Shown in pieces: positions 39,400-63,874 of a stretch of 64,000 nt of DNA; the first letter of the stretch is position 1; each line of letters begins with the position of its first letter. A program made the translations under genes and the position numbers. The notes under the pieces were generated by a model, which did not search any database, was not told the origin of the DNA, and was given only the letters and a program-made list of their open reading frames with translations. Origin of the DNA: a virus (lineage: Duplodnaviria > Caudoviricetes); IMG/VR virus record IMGVR_UViG_3300035507_000332. One strand, written 5' to 3'.

Positions 39400-39492
39400 A
39401 AAATGCACAAAAAGATAGGTTGTCAAGCCTTTTTCAGGCATAGAAGCAGAAAATAGTTGCGCAGGAAGTTCCTACTGTTTACTGTTTACAGC

Positions 39493-40236
39493 ATGTCAAA
39501 AGCAAATTATCCAGATCAGGCGAAGTTGTTCAAGATGTGTTACTACAATCCAGAGAATCCTTCTCTACCATTAGTTCGCAGGAAGACAGGCAAGCCTATT
39601 GGAGGAGTCTATTATCCAGAAGGTAGAAGGGCAGTCACCTACTATCGTCACTACTATAGAGGGACGTTGCAGATTTGCAGATTGGTTTGGGTATATTGGT
39701 GCGGAGTGAATCCCGATCAGAGAATTCTCCGAGAAGACAAGAATCCATTGAACAATCTAATGGAGAATCTATATGTACTCTATCACGGCAAGAAATACTT
39801 CCTGAGAGATATCGTCGAGATGCAGAGAGTGGAGGGAGGGAATTCTGAAAATCAACAGAACAATTATGTGCAACAGAATTCTCCTGCCGAAGAAGAAATT
39901 TCCGACCCTGAAGATAGATACGTCAGTCGCCCAGTGACGAGGGAAGAGATAGAAGAAGCGGAGAGAGAAGTAGCCGAGGCGAATGCCGAAGCCGAGCGAG
40001 AAGAGAGAGAAGCACGAGAACAATCGTTGAGAGCAACTTCCGAGATGGACGAAGAAGTGTACCGTCAATTTGGCAAGAGAAATATTCTTGACGTAACAGA
40101 CGACGAGATACAGGAAATCCGAGAAAGAGAAGTGCGCTCAAAATTCTTGAAGTACCGCAATCAGACACAGCTGATGAAAGAGTTATTAGGAGTGAACGTA
40201 CGAGTGGACGAAGACGACGATGCAATACCATTATGA
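39493..40236 (+). CDS. degenerate HNH-endonuclease-like domain + acidic coiled coil
   Basis: ICRLVWVYWCG.NP...LREDKNPLNNLMENL; catalytic His missing. Confidence 0.6.
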   Translation: MSKANYPDQAKLFKMCYYNPENPSLPLVRRKTGKPIGGVYYPEGRRAVTYYRHYYRGTLQICRLVWVYWCGVNPDQRILREDKNPLNNLMENLYVLYHGKKYFLRDIVEMQRVEGGNSENQQNNYVQQNSPAEEEISDPEDRYVSRPVTREEIEEAEREVAEANAEAEREEREAREQSLRATSEMDEEVYRQFGKRNILDVTDDEIQEIREREVRSKFLKYRNQTQLMKELLGVNVRVDEDDDAIPL

Positions 40237-40724
40237 GGGGTCAACCCACCCATTTTGCAAAAAGAGAATTTTGCGCAATTTTGACGACTTCGACCCCCGA
40301 AAAGGTGAAATTTTCCTTGCAAAACCGAGATTTTGTGCGCTTTAGGGTAGCAGGGGTATTTTTGAATTTTCTTGACAATTGGGCGTAGCTGTGCGTGGGC
40401 TACCCTATTTTTGAATTTTGCATAAAACCAAATTGCCCATTGGGCTGCACTTTAGACGCCCCGATTATTGAAACTTCAGAGCGCAGGAAGTACACCCTGA
40501 TTATTGAAAGTGGGCAGAGAATTTTTCTTGACAGGGAAGTTTGGCACGACCCCCTCATTTTTGAAAACGCACAGCCCCATTATTGAAAACCGAGGTTAGA
40601 AAATCTTGCCACCGATTTTTGAAACGCTGGGGAATATATATGGGCGACGAGTCGACCCACCCATTATTGAAATTTCGCAGGGTATTTTGCAGGGTGAGAA
40701 TTCAGACTTCCCTATATATATATA

Positions 40725-41024
40725 GTGTGGTACAGTAGAGAGGTGATTGCATTACTAGAACTCAACGGTTGGTTAGTGCCATCGGCGGACGAATTGCCGA
40801 TAGTCTTTTGGTACAGCTTCAAGCAATTTGTGCTATACGGAATTCTCCTGCTACTGGTGTGTGAGGTACAGAAGATAGCTACAGGCAACATGAACGTAGT
40901 TCCAGGCAACAAAATTCTGTGTGTGGTCAAGACGTTAGTGACGATAGGAATGACGAGCCACTTATTTTCTTCACTAATATGCTTGACGTACTTGGGCGTT
41001 TTGGGTATAATTGCGGCGTTGTGA
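40725..41024 (+). CDS. possible small membrane protein
   Basis: 99 aa, strongly hydrophobic; its 3' end contains a promoter. Confidence 0.4.
   Translation: MWYSREVIALLELNGWLVPSADELPIVFWYSFKQFVLYGILLLLVCEVQKIATGNMNVVPGNKILCVVKTLVTIGMTSHLFSSLICLTYLGVLGIIAAL
40983..41011 (+). promoter_or_regulatory. sigma70 promoter of candidate sRNA-1
   Basis: TTGACG-17-TATAAT. Confidence 0.85.
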
Positions 41025-41168
41025 GAATCTCTCACAGATGCGTCATAGGAAACTGTGTTGTGCAACCGCATCCGTCTGGAGTTATCATAATCTAACAAAG
41101 GGAAACATATTAGGTAAAAGTTCAACCGTCGGACCTAGAGTTTAGGTTCGGCGGTTGTTCTTTATTTA
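41017..41168 (+). ncRNA. candidate small RNA 1 (~150 nt)
   Basis: Promoter, 5' hairpin TGTGAGA/TCTCACA, stem GATGCG/CGCATC, 15-bp terminator with G:U pairs; only a 35-codon ORF ending in the terminator. Confidence 0.6.
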
Positions 41169-41243
41169 AGCCTACTACTATATATATAGTGTGTGCAAAA
41201 AACTATCTTGCGCCCGAGTACGGTTTTGCTGTAAAATTTAATT

Positions 41244-41906
41244 ATGAGTACCGCATACTTCGTCGGTTCGCTCGACCCGACCAACCTTACGCCATCAACT
41301 GGAATTCTCATCCACGAAAGCTTCATTGACTACTACAGGGAAGGCAAGAAGATCGCCCAGGTACACATCGGACGTTCTTGCAATCACTACCCTTGGTTGA
41401 ATACCGACAAACGAACTGATATCGTCAAGTGGGCGCATGTCGGCGAGTTATATTCTTCCAGAGTCTGGAGAGCTTGCCGTAATGGTGAACTCAACCTGAT
41501 CGACTTCTTGAGCAATGACCGATTCTGGGTGGACGAATCTCTGGTGGCTAACAAGAAGAACGCCTCGCCTGAAGATGTCAAGCAAAAGCGTCTGCTCAAA
41601 AAAAAGAAAAACAAACAAAATAAAAAGCTTGACAAACTCGCAGCTAAAGAGGAATTCTCCGACATGGACTCTCCATCTTGTCAAGAAATTTCTAACCAGG
41701 ACGACTTCACCCACGACCTCCTCGATGATGATTCTCTCGGCGTCCTCGCTGTCTGTCAGACTATCGACTTCCTCGACGACTCGCCCACCGACTACGCCAA
41801 GAAACTGAACGAAGCTCTCTCCAACTCCTCGCCCACTTCAACTTCTGTCCTCACCGACGATTTCATCATTGAAGATTTTTTCACTCCTGAGCAAAAAAAT
41901 TGTTGA
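41244..41906 (+). CDS. hypothetical protein with Lys-rich and acidic tracts
   Basis: 220 aa. Confidence 0.75.
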   Translation: MSTAYFVGSLDPTNLTPSTGILIHESFIDYYREGKKIAQVHIGRSCNHYPWLNTDKRTDIVKWAHVGELYSSRVWRACRNGELNLIDFLSNDRFWVDESLVANKKNASPEDVKQKRLLKKKKNKQNKKLDKLAAKEEFSDMDSPSCQEISNQDDFTHDLLDDDSLGVLAVCQTIDFLDDSPTDYAKKLNEALSNSSPTSTSVLTDDFIIEDFFTPEQKNC

Positions 41907-41931
41907 CTCCTGCGCCCGACTGCGCTATAAT
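41903..41931 (+). promoter_or_regulatory. sigma70 promoter of candidate sRNA-2
   Basis: TTGACT-17-TATAAT. Confidence 0.85.
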
Positions 41932-41936
41932 TCCGT

Positions 41937-42186
41937 CGTTCCAAATAGGAATGAGTTGAGGTCAACCCCAACGGTTTGCCTTTTCGTTCATAGTTCGTCT
42001 TTCCGTTGTCGGCTGAACTCCTCATTCTAATTAGCGAACGGTCTGTCGTCGAGAGACGGTGGTATCCATGATTGAATTGAGTTAAAGCAGGTCTCTTGCT
42101 TCTCGCTCGGATTCTCTGAAGGTTTTTATTGTTGTTTCTTTTCCCTTCTGTGAGTTCGGCTGAAGTAGGAGGCCTGTTTTATTTTT
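41937..42186 (+). ncRNA. candidate structured antisense RNA 2 (~250 nt)
   Basis: Two long hairpins with pyrimidine-rich loops, GAGA tetraloop hairpin, 19-bp closing stem with 4 G:U pairs then U-tract. Confidence 0.75.
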
Positions 42187-42190
42187 CGCT

Positions 42191-42690
42191 AAAAACCCCT
42201 GGGAATTTTTGAAAGCCCTAAATAATGCGTGCGCTCCGCTGCTCGCTCGATTTTTCGGAGGTGCGTACTACTACAGTTGGTAAATTCCCCTGCTGTTGGA
42301 CAAATTCCCCTGCGAATTTTTTGTCGCCTAAATAATAGACCTCGCCCATTTTCTCAAAATTCCCCTGGACTTTTTTCGCTTCCCTAAATATACTTCCCTG
42401 TGCAAAATTTCTGCGCCTAAATAATGTAGGTGCGTATTCGACAAAATTCCCCCGAGATTTTCGTGCGCCCTAAATAATACGTCTTCGCTGAAGGCTCAAA
42501 ATTCCCTGCGAATTTTTTAACGCCTAAATAATGAGCCGAGCCTCGGCTCGGTGCTCGTAAAGGGAGGTGCGTGTTATACATAAAAACCCCTGGGAATTTT
42601 TGAAAGGCCCAAATAATATACGTGCGCACGTGCGTGCGTGATGAAAAGGGAGGTGCGTATAGGTATGGGGGTGCGATAAAAATTTTATAT
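42191..42690. repeat. cluster of ~7 degenerate boundary-element units
   Basis: AAA(TT/AA)CCCCTG(G/C)GAATTTTT...CC(T)AAATAAT; three units end in GGAGGTGCGT. Confidence 0.85.
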
Positions 42691-42945
42691 GCCGAGGCAT
42701 AAAATTTTATACAGCTTGGAATTCTTGACTGCGCAATACATTATTTCTGGGGTCAAGTTTAGAAGCTGATCAGGTACGGTTGAGGACTGAACAGACGATT
42801 GAACAGATCTCCCCACGGATGGGCTAGAAATAGGCTTAAAACTAGCCCTTGCTGTACGGATGGGCAGTTGTTCCACTCCGTACCCTAAGGCGGTTTCTAG
42901 GCTATTCTAGGAGCTTCTGTAGAAACTAGCCACTTCATCAGGGCA

Positions 42946-42975
42946 CAAAAAAACCCCACCCCCGAAGGGGTGGGG
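42946..42975 (-). terminator. C(UUCG)G terminator, representative of a ~7-copy family
   Basis: CCCACCCCTTCGGGGGTGGG + U-tract; also ~44200, 46243, 47006, 47668; no U-tract at 44647, 45013. Confidence 0.9.
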
Positions 42976-42984
42976 CTGAGAGCT

Positions 42985-43299
42985 TCAGAGTTGGTTCTTG
43001 ATGATGAACTTGATTCCGTTCTTCAGTTCGTAAGTTTTGAAGTGCGGATTCTCTCCCCACGCAAGGCAATCAACCATGATTCGAGAGACTGAACGCTTGG
43101 GATTGCGGACATTAAGGACTGCGTCCTTGCAGTTACCGTTGTAAACTCGGATAGTGAATCCGCTTGCTTCTTGGCGCATGGTGATGCGTTCTCCGTACTC
43201 ACCCCAGAACATCTGAGAGTTGATGTAGTCCAGAATTGCTTCCTTGACTCTAGCGACTGCTTCAGCGTCGCTCCGTACTTGTTGTTCTTTTTCAGTCAT
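42985..43299 (-). CDS. early hypothetical protein
   Basis: Own promoter, hairpin and terminator. Confidence 0.8.
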   Translation of the reverse strand: MTEKEQQVRSDAEAVARVKEAILDYINSQMFWGEYGERITMRQEASGFTIRVYNGNCKDAVLNVRNPKRSVSRIMVDCLAWGENPHFKTYELKNGIKFIIKNQL

Positions 43300-43548
43300 A
43301 GCGATGATTGAACTTGTGGTTCAGGCGAAGGGAAAAACCGCTCTCCCTTGCAACTGCGCATATTATAGCCGAACTCTGAACTAAGGTCAAGAACTTTTGA
43401 GAATTTTATTCAATATTTATTTTACAGCAGGAGGAACTTTTCCCTTGACAAAAAAACTTCTTGACAGTGGTTCAGAATTCCAGAGCTTTTGAGCTGATCA
43501 ACCACGGCACAAAAAAACCCCTTGACAGAAGCCAAGGGGTTGAGTGGT

Positions 43549-45042: not shown

Positions 45043-45708
45043 TTAGTATGAGCCAGGAACTGAGTTGCAGTGCGTATGCCCTTCTGTGTACTTGCTGAGG
45101 TGATAACGTCCGTTGATTGCACCACTGAAGCAAGCCTTGCCATTGCAACCACGGTATACCGTGAGGCGGATCTTCTGAGGTTCACCCACAATGCGTGAGG
45201 GGTCAGGGATGATTTCTTCATACATGCGGTCAGAGGAAACAACCTTGTGCCCAATTTCCACGATTTCAGCGGTCATACCCTTGACGGAAAGCACCTTGTA
45301 GAAGTCGGTAAGGGTGCAGTCATAACCGTATTGAGAAACAAGGATTGCGCCTGCCTTGAAGTACCCACGAGCGTTTGGTTCTGAGTTGGCAAGGGCTTCT
45401 TCCTTGAGGGCTTGACGTTCTGCCTTGGCTTGGTCACGCTTGGCTTGCTTCTTGGCTTCCTTGCGTGCGAAGTAGGCTTGCACATCAGAGATTGTTGAGT
45501 TGGTGAAGCACTTGGCGTTGGAAGTGCACCACTTAGACATGAGCTTGGAAACGTTCATGCTGTAGACGTCTGAGCCAATAGCAAGGAGGACTTCTGAGCC
45601 GTTGGCGGTGAATGCGGTTTCAACTTCAGCAGGGATTTCCACGTAGTGGCGAGCGAGGAAAATCTTGGCTTCAGTGACGATATCGGAGGTTGCGAACTTG
45701 TGGTTCAT
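45043..45708 (-). CDS. early protein with G.IL...YGYD.T..DFY.V domain
   Basis: Complete cassette; motif recurrent in phage hypotheticals. Confidence 0.8.
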   Translation of the reverse strand: MNHKFATSDIVTEAKIFLARHYVEIPAEVETAFTANGSEVLLAIGSDVYSMNVSKLMSKWCTSNAKCFTNSTISDVQAYFARKEAKKQAKRDQAKAERQALKEEALANSEPNARGYFKAGAILVSQYGYDCTLTDFYKVLSVKGMTAEIVEIGHKVVSSDRMYEEIIPDPSRIVGEPQKIRLTVYRGCNGKACFSGAINGRYHLSKYTEGHTHCNSVPGSY

Positions 45709-48729: not shown

Positions 48730-49134
48730 TTACTTGGTGCGGTCAAGGAGTCCAAGCTCATCAAGGAACTGAACTTGTGTGGTGATTGCTTCCTTGAGTT
48801 CGTTGTAGAAGGTGCGGAAGCGTTCAATTTGAGCTTGGGAAGGCTTCCCATCCTTGGCGAGCTTGAGGAGCTTGTAGGAGAAGGAGGACTTGCAAAGCCC
48901 TGTTGCAATGTCGGCAACGTGAACGGTTACGTTCAGCTTTTCAGCGGAGAGTGCGGAGATCTCAAACTGAATGCCAAGGGCAGGAACTTTTGCCGTGCGG
49001 ATAGCGAGCAGGCGGATAATCTTTGCCATGTTTTCGCTTGAAAGGTCAAGGAAGTAGTAGGCGATGTGCTTATCTACAATCTTGAGGGAGTCGCAGATGA
49101 CGATGAGGGCGTAGGCAGAAGCGGATGCGGTCAT
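48730..49134 (-). CDS. early hypothetical protein
   Basis: Start moved to MTASAS. Confidence 0.75.
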   Translation of the reverse strand: MTASASAYALIVICDSLKIVDKHIAYYFLDLSSENMAKIIRLLAIRTAKVPALGIQFEISALSAEKLNVTVHVADIATGLCKSSFSYKLLKLAKDGKPSQAQIERFRTFYNELKEAITTQVQFLDELGLLDRTK

Positions 49135-49424
49135 AGTAATGAATGATTGAATTGATTGCTGAGGTGAAACCTTATCACCTTCAACGCCGTCAATTATAAC
49201 CGAACTTGTGGGCAGAGTCAAGAACTTTTGAGAATAAAATTGAATATTTTTTCAGAGAGTAGATCAACCGCCTAAAAATAGATCAACTGTAGAGTTCAAT
49301 TCCAGAGTTCAACTAAGCAGTTCAACTAGGCGGTTAACTTGTGTGAATAACTTTTCCCTTGACAAGTGGGCACAAAAAACCCCTTGACATGAGCCAAGGG
49401 GTTGGGCGGTTCAGTTGTTAGGGT

Positions 49425-52414: not shown

Positions 52415-52810
52415 TTAGCACAGAAGATGAGCAATACAGAAGTCTTTCTCTAATCCCTTGGCTGTATCCTTGAGGAACTCAGCAGGTTCTGAAAGCTTCT
52501 GTTCAAGGGCGGTTCTGGCGTTGTTGTAGAGAGCCTTGAGGAATACGTACTTGGTTACCTTCTCACCTTCAGAAAGAGTTCTGAAGCTGTAGGAGAACTG
52601 TTCCTTGAGGTTGGCAGGGAGCTTTGCAATTGACTTGTCAAGAGTTTCTTGCATTGAGGCTACCGTGTCGGCATGGGTGCGATCTCCGCCGAACGTTGCG
52701 TTCCCTTGGCGTGTAAGGTGGGCGATGTAGAGGTAGGCGTTGGCTACTTCATAAGTTACCCAATCGGCTACCTTGGTTGAGCCGAACAGTGATGAGGTTG
52801 TGAGGCACAT
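52415..52810 (-). CDS. early hypothetical protein
   Basis: Complete cassette. Confidence 0.8.
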   Translation of the reverse strand: MCLTTSSLFGSTKVADWVTYEVANAYLYIAHLTRQGNATFGGDRTHADTVASMQETLDKSIAKLPANLKEQFSYSFRTLSEGEKVTKYVFLKALYNNARTALEQKLSEPAEFLKDTAKGLEKDFCIAHLLC

Positions 52811-53177
52811 AATTGTTGTTCTTTTGGTTTGGCGTTGTGGCGAAGTCCTATCACCTGCAACGTGCCCATATTATACAGCAGGAGCTTGCGAAGGTCAAGG
52901 AGTTTTTTTGAAAATTTCATAAGATTTTTTCAGCGGATATTGTGAGGGTGTGTCAAGTGAAATTTTTGGTGGCAGAAGTGAGGGCTTCAGCAGAAGCTTG
53001 TCAAGAGAAATTTTTGGGGGTGAAAACAGGGGTTTCTGGGAATACGTGTCAAGAAGAATTTTCAGTGGGCTGATCAGCGCAAAAGTTGGTTTCTGCGGAT
53101 ACTGTGTCAAGAGAAAAGTTTCTGGTGAGGACACAAAAAAAACCCCTTGACAACTGCCAAGGGGTGAGGGTCATTTT

Positions 53178-55708: not shown

Positions 55709-56506
55709 TCAGCGGTTGTTCTTCTTGAGGTTGGCGAAGTGGCGGAAGTACAGCATTTCTTGCTCATCTCGTATGTGCCAATTGCGCAGAATAGCCTTGT
55801 CTCGTTTGTATCCGTGCGAGGAGTAACAGTAGGCTTCAAGTGCGTAGGTCAGTTCACGGAGGGGCTCACAGTTGGCGAGGTTGATTCTAGTTCCTTGGTA
55901 CTGGGGCAGATCAGCCCTTACGATGTGGATTTCTGAAGCGCAGGGAACGAAGTCTAGGGATTCTAGTCTCTCAGGGTGTAGTTCATCTTTCAATTTGCGC
56001 AGTGGGCGTTCAGCGTCTGCCAACTGAAATTCTAAACCTTGGTTGTGGTAGCCCATTGAGGAGAATTCAGGGATTTCTAGCAGTGCGTTCAAATTCTCTT
56101 CAAAGCTCAGTCCAAAACAGAAAGCCCTTCTGTCCAGATTGTCGCAACGGTAGACAATTGTTTCTGGATTGCCGTCTTCAACGTAGCGGTACAGATCAGC
56201 GTCAGGGTTGAATGTCAAGAGAATTCTGTTCACCAGTCCGAAAAACTGTTGTGCCTTCTCAGGAGTACCAAGACAAGTTAGGCAGGCTAGTTCAGCAGGG
56301 GTGCGATCAGCGTTTCTCAGTACAGCGGAGTTTCTGCCGTTGTCTTCAGCGTTCAACCAGTCAAGCATTTCTCCTTCAAAACCCCATGCGTCTTTTCTGT
56401 CTTTGTCGAGGTGTACCAAGCGGTACTTGTCAAGCAAAAACTTCTGTTCTTCTGGGGTGAGGTCATGGACTGATTCCAGTTCAGCGAGTGCGGTTTCTTT
56501 TCTCAT
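55709..56506 (-). CDS. hypothetical protein
   Basis: 265 aa behind TTGACA-16-TATAAT. Confidence 0.8.
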   Translation of the reverse strand: MRKETALAELESVHDLTPEEQKFLLDKYRLVHLDKDRKDAWGFEGEMLDWLNAEDNGRNSAVLRNADRTPAELACLTCLGTPEKAQQFFGLVNRILLTFNPDADLYRYVEDGNPETIVYRCDNLDRRAFCFGLSFEENLNALLEIPEFSSMGYHNQGLEFQLADAERPLRKLKDELHPERLESLDFVPCASEIHIVRADLPQYQGTRINLANCEPLRELTYALEAYCYSSHGYKRDKAILRNWHIRDEQEMLYFRHFANLKKNNR

Positions 56507-57600: not shown

Positions 57601-58035
57601 TTATTTCTCGAACTTTTCAATAGCTAGCTTGATTCGTTGCAAGTCCGTATCTTCTCCCCAGGATTCGTTGTAGATCTCATAGGGTGAGTCGGATTCGTAC
57701 CATCTTTCTTCCCCTTCTCCGTAGGCATAGGATACGTAGCACGTGTCGTCATAGTATCTGTTGCTTTCTTCGTTAACGCTCGAGAGCCATTCAAGTTCCT
57801 TGTCGTCTTCTTCGTTTGCGCCCATGAGGTGGAAGCACTTTACGATGTCGGCGAACTTGTTGTAGATGTCCTTGAGTTCGTCAGCTGTAAGCTCTTCGTT
57901 GTCAAGGATGAAGTCTGCCATCTCGTTGACTTTATCGGCTTGCTCTTCGTTCGTCTTCTTGCTATTGCAAGCGTAGGCGAAAGCGTCAAGGATGAGGTCT
58001 CGGAGGTCGGCGGTGTAGGATTCGGATTCGTTCAT
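57601..58035 (-). CDS. highly acidic early protein
   Basis: Start moved to MNESES; very D/E rich. Confidence 0.8.
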   Translation of the reverse strand: MNESESYTADLRDLILDAFAYACNSKKTNEEQADKVNEMADFILDNEELTADELKDIYNKFADIVKCFHLMGANEEDDKELEWLSSVNEESNRYYDDTCYVSYAYGEGEERWYESDSPYEIYNESWGEDTDLQRIKLAIEKFEK

Positions 58036-58338
58036 AATTCGTGTGCCCTTGTTCGTGGGCGATGGGCATATTATAAGCGATTCCAGTGTTTCAGTCAATA
58101 ACTTTTTAGTATTTTCTACAACTTTTTTTTGTGAGGGTGCGGAATCCCTTATTTTTCAAGGGTTTAAGGGCACGAAATTTTTTGAGGGGTATTTCTCAAA
58201 TTACCCCAGAACTGCCCTTGATGGGGGTATTTATCGAACTGATGGCAATCTTTCCAGGGGTGCGGAATAACGCTCCTATTGATGAATTTCAGGGCAAAAA
58301 AATACCCCTTAGGGATTGCTCCCTAAGGGGTTGAATAT

Positions 58339-58779
58339 TTAGGCGATAGGTAGTTGGGCAAGTCGTCCGTTCACCTTTGCAGGGATGAGTTTCTTGCCGT
58401 TGTATTTGTCAAGCGGAAAGATTCTATCTGGCTTCTCGATATCGATTTTCTTAGTAGTTCCAAACGCTGTAAAGCGGTATTTGTAAATCCAAGAACATCC
58501 CTGAAACTCCTTGCCTAATTTTGTTTCTGGCATGTCGTATTCCATGCGGTGGATGAGGTCGTTATCATCCGCCATATAAACCACAATACAGCGTTTTTCG
58601 GTGTCGTATTCTCCGCTTTCACAGAAGAAATAGGAACAAGTCTTAGACTTAGTTTTGACCGTCCTTGAGCTGATGGCGATATTCCAACGGTAACGCTTGC
58701 CGTTGATAATGACGTTCTGAAAAACAGCGGTATCCCCTAGGGAATATTCGATTTTCTGGATGGTGTAGGAGCGCAACAT
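58339..58779 (-). CDS. early hypothetical protein
   Basis: Complete cassette. Confidence 0.8.
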   Translation of the reverse strand: MLRSYTIQKIEYSLGDTAVFQNVIINGKRYRWNIAISSRTVKTKSKTCSYFFCESGEYDTEKRCIVVYMADDNDLIHRMEYDMPETKLGKEFQGCSWIYKYRFTAFGTTKKIDIEKPDRIFPLDKYNGKKLIPAKVNGRLAQLPIA

Positions 58780-58957
58780 AGCGTTATTTCTTTTTGTGGT
58801 GATGAGGGAGCAACTTGTTCCCTCGTGACGTGCATAATTATATCAAAATGACTCACCAAGTCAACACAAAATTGAAAAAAGTGCAATTTAGCATTTTAGG
58901 CTTGACTTAGGGTAAAAAATACCCCTGAGGATTGCTCCCCAGGGGTGAATCTGTTGG

Positions 58958-59467: not shown

Positions 59468-59725
59468 TTACTTGCGCTTGGTGAATTTATAGATGGTATA
59501 GAATAACCATTCTTCTTTGATGTCACCCAGTGCGATGTTCTTTGGAGCACGTCCAGGAAATACCGAGAATGGAATTTTAGCCTTGACTTCCCAGATTTCA
59601 CCGTCCTGAGTTTCAACCCACCATCTGTAGAGGTGCGCCTGGTTGGCATCATCACGGAAAAACCAGCGTGCGTTTTCATTGATAGGTGACGAGATAGCCA
59701 GAATTTCGTAGTCGCTAGCGTCCAT
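59468..59725 (-). CDS. early hypothetical protein
   Basis: Start moved to MDASDY. Confidence 0.75.
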   Translation of the reverse strand: MDASDYEILAISSPINENARWFFRDDANQAHLYRWWVETQDGEIWEVKAKIPFSVFPGRAPKNIALGDIKEEWLFYTIYKFTKRK

Positions 59726-59920
59726 AGGATTGTTTCTTTTCTTCTTGTTTGGCGATGAGGGAAACACCGTGTCTCGCTCAATCACGTGCCATATTATACC
59801 CAGATTTTATGCCGTGTCAACAAAAAAAATGAAAAAAGTACAATATCCATTTTCTGACTTGACAAGATACTAGAAAAGTGCGTGCGGAAAAATACCCCTG
59901 CCGTGGAACTATTCCATCAG

Positions 59921-60176: not shown

Positions 60177-60282
60177 TTTTATAAAATTTTATAAGCCAAA
60201 AAACCCTGGGAATTTTTCAAAAGCCCAAATACGGTTTCGTGCGCCCGAGCGCACGTGAGCCGAAGGGAGGTGCGTATATAGT
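60177..60282. repeat. boundary element copy
   Basis: AT palindrome then AAAAACCCTGGGAATTTTT...AAGGGAGGTGCGTATATAGT. Confidence 0.9.
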
Positions 60283-60803
60283 ATTCTCGCCGAGCCGTTT
60301 TTCAGTATTGTTGACTGCGACGGTTTAGATTTAATTTGAGGTTGTTTTTGTGCTGGCTAGATCGTCCCAAAATGACGTTTTTTTGCACCCTAAAAATTGT
60401 CTTCCTGGCAATCACTTTTTGCACTTCCACAACGTCGATTTTTTTACCCCCAAAATGACGCCCAAAATGACGGCATGAAAAAATTGTGTGGGGTGATGTG
60501 GGAAGTCATGCGTAACGTCATTTTTAGAGCTGTAACCTAAACTGAGTTACAGCGTAAAAATCAGAGTGCCGACAGCTAGCCATCTTTCTTGCCCAAAAAG
60601 TGCCGTTCTCTGATTTCGCCCAAAAATGCCCCTAGAACAGCGTTTTGAACGTTGGGCTTAACGAGTGACCGCCCGGACAGCAAGGACACGTTTTAGACCT
60701 ATTTCTGAGCCAAATTTCGGATTTCTGAAAAAGCTGCGGAATCACACATCCAAAAAAAAGGCACTCCCGAAGGAGTGCCTGAGCGTCATTTTGTGGGGAT
60801 GAC

Positions 60804-62028: not shown

Positions 62029-62248
62029 GAATTCCCTGCAAATTTTTACGTGCCCAAATACGCTCTTTTTCATATTGCCAAAATTCCCCTGGGAATTTTT
62101 TAGAAGCCCTAAATAACACGCAGGCGTGCGCCCAGCGCACGTGCGCAGAAGGGAGGTGCGTATTCAGTATGGGAAAATTTTATAAAATTTTATGTCTTGC
62201 GACATAAAATTTCATTTCTATGAATTTTATAGTAAATTTATAAATTTA
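62029..62248. repeat. boundary element copy with AT-rich palindromes
   Basis: Same layout as 56651-56837. Confidence 0.9.
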
Positions 62249-63363: not shown

Positions 63364-63720
63364 TTAGGCTAGCAATTCTAGTTCCTTATCTATCGTTGCT
63401 AGAATGGTACGGAGTGACTTTTCCGACAAGTCCACTAGTTGCATAATGTCGGTACTTTCTAGCATTTCATATATCTTTTCTAGTGAGTCCATTTGCTCGA
63501 TTATCACCTTGTAAAGGTGAGTATCGTTTGACATGGCTTTGTAGAGCATGTCAAATTCATTTGTTTCATAATCGATTATCTCCCAAATAATGCTAGCGAG
63601 ATAATGGGAACTCTCCTCGTATCGATACAAGGAACGCAAAGAATTCAGTCTTTCTTGCATGGCTTCTCTTGCTAGGACAAGTTCCTTGCAAGCCGTTTGA
63701 TTGTTTAATGGGGTATCCAT
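63364..63720 (-). CDS. early acidic helical protein
   Basis: Start moved to MDTPLN. Confidence 0.75.
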   Translation of the reverse strand: MDTPLNNQTACKELVLAREAMQERLNSLRSLYRYEESSHYLASIIWEIIDYETNEFDMLYKAMSNDTHLYKVIIEQMDSLEKIYEMLESTDIMQLVDLSEKSLRTILATIDKELELLA

Positions 63721-63874
63721 AATTTGATGTGTCGTTTGTTCTGACGACAAGGCAAGACTAGTATATCTTTTTTCTCTCGTCAAATAAATTTCGTATCTTT
63801 TCATCACTTTTCTTTCTCTCACTCTCGAAAGTAGTTTGTTTTTAGTGAGTTATGGAGAGAAAAAAATTTCACTT

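Follow-up and report, generated by a model that had tools for sequence, protein, structure and literature searches.

The c4 RNA of phages P1 and P7 (immI) is a structured RNA whose loops block translation by pairing in trans with the ribosome-binding region on an mRNA of the same phage, and c4 depends on its structure to expose the complementary segments (PMC12197685). Small cis-antisense RNAs, namely lambda OOP and P22 sar/sas, likewise control phage genes by pairing (PMC12197685, reference list). Here we analyzed a window of 64,000 nt, the whole stretch of DNA under study, which derives from a large uncultured phage and in which a structured RNA of ~250 nt is predicted between genes on one strand and early cassettes on the other. 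Its exposed stretches mirror the start regions of early genes, and thus the RNA probably damps early-gene translation by base-pairing. In the reading that we favor, with a rough probability of 0.5, it would act in trans as an antisense RNA whose three seeds keep ribosomes from binding to about half of the early mRNAs.

The c4 RNA, to which the CI RNA of P4 is related, is the closest known mechanism, and the RNA described here is not a member of that family. Similar to c4, it has exposed loops with predicted complementarity to the ribosome-binding regions of its own phage. However, it possesses its own promoter and terminator, whereas c4 is processed from its target operon; its three seeds are directed at about ten unlinked cassettes on the opposite strand, 1–21 kb away, whereas c4 addresses one downstream mRNA; and nothing points to an immunity or lysogeny context. 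It is also longer, at ~250 nt against ~77 nt for c4. An Rfam cmscan of the RNA yielded nothing at gathering scores, and at E<=5 only chance miRNA and snoRNA matches appeared across 40600–42300; the RNA matches none of the models of C4 (RF01695), 6S RNA, GOLLD, ROOL, HEARO and OLE.

In bacteria, trans-acting sRNAs derived from a 3'UTR may be transcribed from a separate promoter located where the upstream gene ends, as exemplified by MicL and DapZ. The present RNA resembles this type in that its promoter reaches into the 3' end of the preceding coding sequence, an intrinsic terminator with a U-tail is shared, and the single-stranded seeds are predicted to be directed at start regions. Unlike MicL and DapZ, it is encoded by a phage and aimed at the phage's own genes, it carries three seeds on a much larger scaffold, and its host probably does not use Shine-Dalgarno sites. 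It also differs from lambda OOP and P22 sar/sas, which overlap their targets, in lying 1–21 kb from its own; opposite the RNA there is only an unsupported 77-aa frame (41792–42025) without a promoter. Phage RNAs that act by base-pairing are a known kind, and what is new is the set of multiple seeds aimed at the phage's own early cassettes. Textbooks describe how virulent phages shut off their early genes at the transcriptional level, for example by modifying RNA polymerase or through anti-sigma factors and nucleases. To our knowledge, no RNA silencing its own early mRNAs in trans has been described for a large, probably virulent phage.

The genes on the plus strand up to 41906 encode tail proteins, a Dda-like helicase, HNH endonucleases and many glycosyltransferases. 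On the minus strand, from 64000 down to 42985, there are ~20 small orphan genes, termed early cassettes, each composed of a TTGACN-17-TATAAT promoter, a ~50-nt leader, an ATG and a G+C-rich terminator. The leaders are C/A-rich and devoid of a Shine-Dalgarno sequence, and some genes are leaderless; none of the early proteins tested gave a Pfam family. Shine-Dalgarno motifs are rare throughout the phage (6 of 30 plus-strand genes, with a loose motif). This scarcity, along with the sigma70-type promoters, suggests that the host starts translation without Shine-Dalgarno pairing. That this host is a cyanobacterium is only a guess. No DNA relatives were retrieved from INPHARED using 41000–43500 as the query, and scans of IMG/VR with the neighboring protein, the helicase and a 24-nt word of the RNA gave no match.

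To compare the locus among related phages, we used seven variants of the neighboring 220-aa protein (at least 90% identity, from public metagenomes), which led to 21 contigs. The RNA was compared in 20 of them, the twenty-first ending within the RNA, and occurs as nine distinct sequence variants, including that of the window. A plus-strand unit from promoter to terminator, containing no ORF downstream of the promoter, is present as claimed in the preliminary description, starting with TTGACT-17-TATAAT at 41903–41931 and ending in a U-tract. The features of the locus, all on the plus strand, are as follows.

41244–41906, plus strand: orphan gene of the 220-aa protein, preceded by the motif TATATATAGTGTG; its transcript would run into the RNA
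41903–41931, plus strand: promoter TTGACT-17-TATAAT, sigma70-type, with an upstream A-tract and 11 of 12 matches
41938–42186, plus strand: predicted non-coding RNA of ~250 nt, also the 3'UTR of the gene 41244–41906, based on fold, lack of an ORF and conservation
41938–42039, plus strand: hairpin 1, with an uncertain apex (an open 28-nt loop or two small hairpins)
41975–42002, plus strand: loop 1, 28 nt within hairpin 1, invariant in all variants
42040–42066, plus strand: hairpin 2, with a GAGA tetraloop at 42051–42054 and 11 pairs, all invariant
42061–42083, plus strand: linker seed region, invariant
42083–42181, plus strand: hairpin 3, the terminator hairpin, with a 20-bp base stem including four G·U pairs
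42123–42143, plus strand: loop 2, the 21-nt apical loop of hairpin 3, with an opening cost of 0.2 kcal/mol, invariant
42177–42186, plus strand: terminator U-tract TTTTATTTTT, kept in all variants with a 1-nt length change

Both hexamers of the promoter are invariant among the nine variants, and its A-tract context is that of the ~20 early promoters on the minus strand. The -35 box and the stop codon of the upstream gene (41904–41906) overlap. As there is no terminator between this gene and the RNA, the latter also represents the 3'UTR of the gene; a single terminator at 42083–42186 serves both, a layout of the 3'UTR-derived sRNA type. The U-tract that closes the unit reads UUUUAUUUUU. The unit at 41903–42186 probably represents a gene for a non-coding RNA of ~250 nt.

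Folding of the 261-nt segment 41930–42190 revealed a minimum free energy of -86.1 kcal/mol for the plus strand (z -4.86), which was reached by 0 of 200 shuffles. The minus strand gave a weaker fold of -65.3 kcal/mol (z -3.47). Hairpin 1, the GAGA hairpin, the linker, hairpin 3 and the U-tract, all of which had been proposed previously, were each found in the plus-strand fold. The proposed assignment to the plus strand also holds. The base stem of hairpin 3 comprises 20 bp, and its four G·U pairs would be A·C mismatches on the minus strand, and thus fit the plus strand only. Moreover, all six transitions at paired positions keep the pairing of the plus strand, whereas four of the six would break that of the minus strand. 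Two long hairpins and a GNRA hairpin would in this way form a scaffold that keeps loop 1, the linker and loop 2 single-stranded. Compensatory double changes were not seen in the RNA pairs of the nine variants, because the diversity is too shallow, and covariation supports neither side. Three singleton transversions break pairs, which counts against silencing in trans, and so does the RNAalifold prediction, whose preferred fold for the apex of hairpin 1 leaves the loop-1 seed partly buried in most variants. The cost of opening this seed varies by variant from 1.1 to 6.5 kcal/mol.

The 20 contigs share 96.5–100% identity over the RNA. Across lineages, the RNA differs by 0.4–3.6%, against 7–17% at the third codon positions of the neighboring gene, corresponding to a 5–7 times lower divergence. 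For the most distant lineages, the differences amount to 2.4–3.6% in the RNA, 16–17% at the adjacent third codon positions and 10–23% in the flanking repeat arrays. Pooling of the variable sites gave 15 of 249 positions for the RNA versus 61 of 221 third codon positions (P = 2e-10). All 15 of these sites lie outside the 72 exposed nucleotides that make up loop 1, the linker and loop 2 (P = 0.005). In structured RNAs, loops ordinarily drift faster than stems; the opposite pattern seen here indicates that the exposed sequence itself is under selection. These data support purifying selection on the RNA, most strongly on the exposed segments. The neighboring 220-aa and 352-aa proteins yielded only clusters of at least 90% identity and no relatives below 90%. 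All nine variants are close relatives with invariant seeds, leaving no seed change to be compared with the targets.

We then examined the complementarity of the RNA to early start regions. To define the early starts without reference to the RNA, we took the first ATG that opens an ORF downstream of each consensus promoter; the start at 63720, which has the usual 5' hairpin and leader, was added. The five matches listed in the preliminary description are all literally present. In the early start windows, allowing at most one G·U pair, matches of at least 11 nt number six and those of at least 13 nt four, whereas 0.6–0.7 and 0.05, respectively, are expected from shuffles. Neither any of the 300 dinucleotide shuffles, the control proposed earlier, nor any of the 300 shuffles of 12-nt blocks reached these values. 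Among 326 equal-length windows of the same genome, the maxima were four and one, respectively. Counted by target, runs of at least 10 contiguous pairs occur at 10 of the 20 early starts, and runs of at least 13 at 4 of the 20, counts that no control attained. The corresponding expectations are 2.1 (maximum 7) and 0.06 for block shuffles, 1.0 (maximum 5) and 0.03 for the 326 genome windows, and 0.6 and 0.01 for an order-2 Markov model trained on the antisense of start regions. The three exposed segments alone account for 9 of the 20 early starts with at least 10 pairs, versus 0.6 under the Markov model, a value reached by 0 of 400 simulated sets.

Within the RNA, the matches concentrate in its three unpaired segments. 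Of the matched nucleotides, 79% are unpaired in the RNA fold, compared to 37% over the whole RNA, and on the mRNA side the matches extend from -21 to +13, the window of ribosome binding. The four best pairs have net energies, as the sum of helix energy and opening costs, of -10.5 to -13 kcal/mol. Full-length RNAduplex hybrids (-30 to -43 kcal/mol) contain long loops and were dropped as unrealistic. The start regions of plus-strand genes show no comparable excess, with three matches against ~1.5 expected, and the neighboring promoter-to-terminator unit at 40983–41165 has no such matches to early starts. The putative target sites, all on the minus strand, are listed below.

58027–58042, minus strand: target 1, start region of a 144-aa early gene; the loop-1 seed 41983–41998 is antisense to -7 to +8
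63712–63724, minus strand: start region of the gene starting at 63720; linker, positions -4 to +8
49143–49155, minus strand: leader of the gene starting at 49134; linker, -21 to -9, 13 perfect pairs
59729–59741, minus strand: leader of the 85-aa gene starting at 59725; loop 2, -16 to -4
58783–58794, minus strand: leader of the gene starting at 58779; loop 2, -15 to -4
43304–43314, minus strand: weak candidate at the start 43299; linker, 11 bp
52812–52821, minus strand: leader of the gene starting at 52810; 10-bp match to loop 2
56493–56502, minus strand: +4 to +13 of the gene starting at 56506; 10-bp match to loop 2, retained in the contig L036
45719–45728, minus strand: leader of the gene starting at 45708; 10-bp match to the linker

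The duplex of loop 1 with the 58035 start comprises 16 bp including one G·U pair, with a helix energy of -20.5 and a net energy of about -11 kcal/mol. The linker is antisense to leaders of the CTCAATTCAATCAT(GG) type, found at the starts 43299, 44626, 45708, 49134 and 63720, and loop 2 to an A-rich GAAAAGAAA(C/U)AA leader family at the starts 52810, 56506, 58779 and 59725. Thus the few targets per seed claimed previously were real matches but too low a count, since the linker and loop 2 match about five starts each.

Conservation of the targets was compared in a shallow population with a mosaic early region. The 16-nt site at 58035, the strongest target, and the whole leader are identical in L036, which carries the most divergent homolog (66% amino-acid identity); the conserved block at this start spans ~75 nt, and thus the 16-nt site is not singled out by its conservation. 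Three diverged versions exist of the leader of the 85-aa gene, each of which forms 12–15 bp with loop 2 in a hand alignment. The site at 43299 carries a 1-nt deletion in eight related contigs and is therefore probably no real target. In a sister lineage, the genes starting at 58035 and 58779 were not found on the early-region contigs (L022–L029). L022, one of these contigs, shares its sample of origin with L004, and the RNA of L004 is 100% identical to that of the window; the sister lineage thus probably lacks both genes, and loop 1 may have no known target there.

These features enable us to propose a putative model, in which the transcription of the RNA, its pairing in vivo, the repression and the biological role are inferred. 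The RNA would be transcribed by the host sigma70 RNA polymerase from its early-type promoter, probably with the 3' end of the mRNA of the gene 41244–41906 as a second source, and its own 3' end would be set by the terminator of hairpin 3 and the U-tract. Each exposed segment mirrors in antisense one type of early leader or start codon, on cassettes located on the opposite strand 1–21 kb away. Pairing over 10–16 bp within -21 to +13 would block binding of the 30S subunit on about half of the early mRNAs, which in turn would limit or end their translation; repression is here assumed over other outcomes. The RNA may in this way damp toxic early proteins, bring about a gradual shut-off as a stable RNA builds up, or block the early genes of a superinfecting genome. 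As its promoter belongs to the same host-sigma70 early class as those of the targets, the RNA should be made together with them, which fits damping, gradual shut-off or superinfection exclusion, and a late switch less well. The antisense excess in exposed segments and the purifying selection partly support the multi-target silencing put forward in the preliminary description, but the shut-off timing found no support, and a simple late shut-off timer is doubtful.

If this model is true, it would add a post-transcriptional layer to phage timing, explain why the "plug-and-play" early cassettes have conserved leader words, and show that such control can work without a Shine-Dalgarno tag. The three seeds would make the RNA a compact natural multi-guide regulatory RNA. 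More tentatively, and at somewhat less than even odds, the three-seed RNA, with its rigid scaffold, might silence about half of the early cassettes at the step of ribosome binding and belong to a class of phage "anti-leader" RNAs, widespread yet undescribed, by which the translation window of early genes is set. In the present phage, whose host would dispense with Shine-Dalgarno sites, the RNA would therefore have to recognize individual leader words instead of a common ribosome-binding tag.

Alternatively, the RNA or 3'UTR might be real and conserved for its structure only, as a terminator or stabilizer at convergent transcription, with antisense segments that are leftover inverted leader fragments from cassette recombination and exert no regulation in trans. 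The unit is indeed located at a convergent junction, contains the sole terminator for the gene 41244–41906, and displays the promoter and the 5' start style of the cassettes. Furthermore, the early cassettes are mosaic and their leaders share words of 10–20 nt with one another, so that the matches could stem from inverted leader copies instead of selection for pairing, and the RNA and its targets show no covariation. Such an origin explains the source of the seeds, but not their exposure and invariance. Three separate leader-like pieces lie within 170 nt, all in unpaired regions, and they constitute the most conserved part of the RNA, whereas neutral relics would drift first; a terminator, moreover, needs no consensus promoter of its own. 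We consider this explanation unlikely. Distinctly less probable is that the RNA acts mainly on other partners, either host mRNAs whose leaders are similarly rich in A/C, or an RNA-binding protein of host or phage, which it would sequester. Host leaders may look alike in view of the scarcity of Shine-Dalgarno sites in the phage (the 6 of 30 plus-strand genes given above), and the U-rich loops and the U-tail resemble those of protein-binding sRNAs. However, the matches exceed the null expectation for leader composition, and are thus specific to the leader words of the phage and not generically A/C-rich.

The locus is also part of a module (40240–42740) flanked by inverted arrays of palindromic 37-nt repeats, and long palindromic DNA can act as a protein or replication signal. 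The segment could accordingly be a DNA-level element, such as an origin, a packaging site or a regulator-binding region, with an incidental fold. We give this only a slim chance: the G·U pairs make the hairpins strand-asymmetric, whereas DNA cruciforms would carry mismatches, all transitions preserve the RNA pairing of the plus strand, and the fold is bracketed exactly by a consensus promoter and a U-tract. Hardly any weight falls on the minus-strand mini-ORFs (MNEKANRWG and MDTTVSRRQTVR) as the expressed products. Both start in leader-like contexts, but they are only 9 and 12 codons long, have no minus-strand promoter upstream (the only candidates on that strand, with 9 of 12 matches, lie inside or downstream of the unit), and show a W-to-R change and an altered stop codon among the variants, as read by hand; the fold of their strand is also the weaker one. 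Trans-acting silencing by three seeds remains our preferred reading. In addition, a single decayed early cassette on the minus strand of the locus was considered and rejected, as the leader-like pieces are three within 170 nt and form the best-conserved part of the RNA.

A role as an RNA chaperone is conceivable for the 220-aa protein encoded upstream. Neither a Pfam or PHROG family nor a usable Atlas match was obtained for it, and its AlphaFold model, with a mean pLDDT of 35, shows no usable fold. Variation in its gene is concentrated at the third codon position, with 8, 9 and 61 variable sites at the first, second and third positions, respectively. Exact copies of the motif TATATATAGTGTG that precedes the gene are present only at 40717 and 41181.

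At the locus of the predicted ~250-nt noncoding RNA, the sequence has the look of a duplicated module, in which a motif, a gene, a promoter, an RNA and a terminator follow one another. The locus comprises the following features:

40240-40700 and 42190-42740, in mutually opposite orientation: arrays of ~37-nt repeat units, flanking the two-gene, two-RNA module
40712-41024 and 41178-41243: stretches of the module holding the copies of TATATATAGTGTG, the motif lying directly ahead of a + strand gene
40983-41165, + strand: second promoter-to-terminator unit, with the early-type promoter TTGACG-17-TATAAT
41244-41906, + strand: gene of an orphan 220-aa protein, located between the two RNA genes

The exact motif TATATATAGTGTG occurs twice within the 64 kb, at 40717 and 41181, and nowhere else. 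Both copies immediately precede a + strand gene that has a promoter-RNA-terminator unit downstream of it. Between 40725 and 41024, variation follows a 3-nt period (6/3/18), indicating that this stretch is protein-coding. The coding frame is probably a hydrophobic + strand ORF of 99 aa, although its wobble positions are shared by an antisense frame. Within the unit at 40983-41165, which is conserved in relatives, the promoter is followed by a ~150-nt folded stretch and a 15-bp terminator (z -5.0). The sole ORF of this unit has 35 codons, and no complementarity to early start regions was found in it. In the 220-aa protein, an acidic tail comes after the lysine-rich stretch KKKKNKQNKK; neither a family nor a confident fold was found for this protein. 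Given the position of its gene between two RNA genes, the protein is a candidate RNA-binding protein worth testing.

Each unit of the flanking arrays consists of a palindromic core (AAAATTCCC..GGGAATTTT) plus TAAATAAT. The arrays diverge rapidly, with numerous indels between relatives. Weaker alignments of the related locus L036 to the window reach ~60194-60284 and ~62029-62173. The units resemble arrayed operators or iterons that a dimeric DNA-binding protein would bind.

Comparison of the early region (42950-64000) with the related metagenome loci L022-L033 and L036 revealed mosaicism among closely related phages. Entire cassettes are swapped, yet promoters, 5' hairpins and leaders remain near-identical. 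For instance, the genes downstream of the 85-aa early gene are different, those of L022 encoding products of 179, 108 and 157 aa. In L036, the homologue of the early gene starting at 58035 has an identical leader and initial 10 codons, yet the protein is only 66% identical.

Across the window, Shine-Dalgarno motifs are scarce ahead of both + strand genes (6 of 30) and early genes. Moreover, three genes, with 49862, 20011 and 34567 among the examples, start 0-1 nt past the predicted transcription start and are thus leaderless. Together, these features suggest a host using Shine-Dalgarno-independent initiation.

The 5' arm of hairpin 3 in the ~250-nt RNA (42092-42114) is 87% complementary across 23 nt to 39988-40010, which falls within the HNH endonuclease gene (39457-40236, + strand). 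By a rough count, such a match within 4 kb is unlikely to arise by chance.
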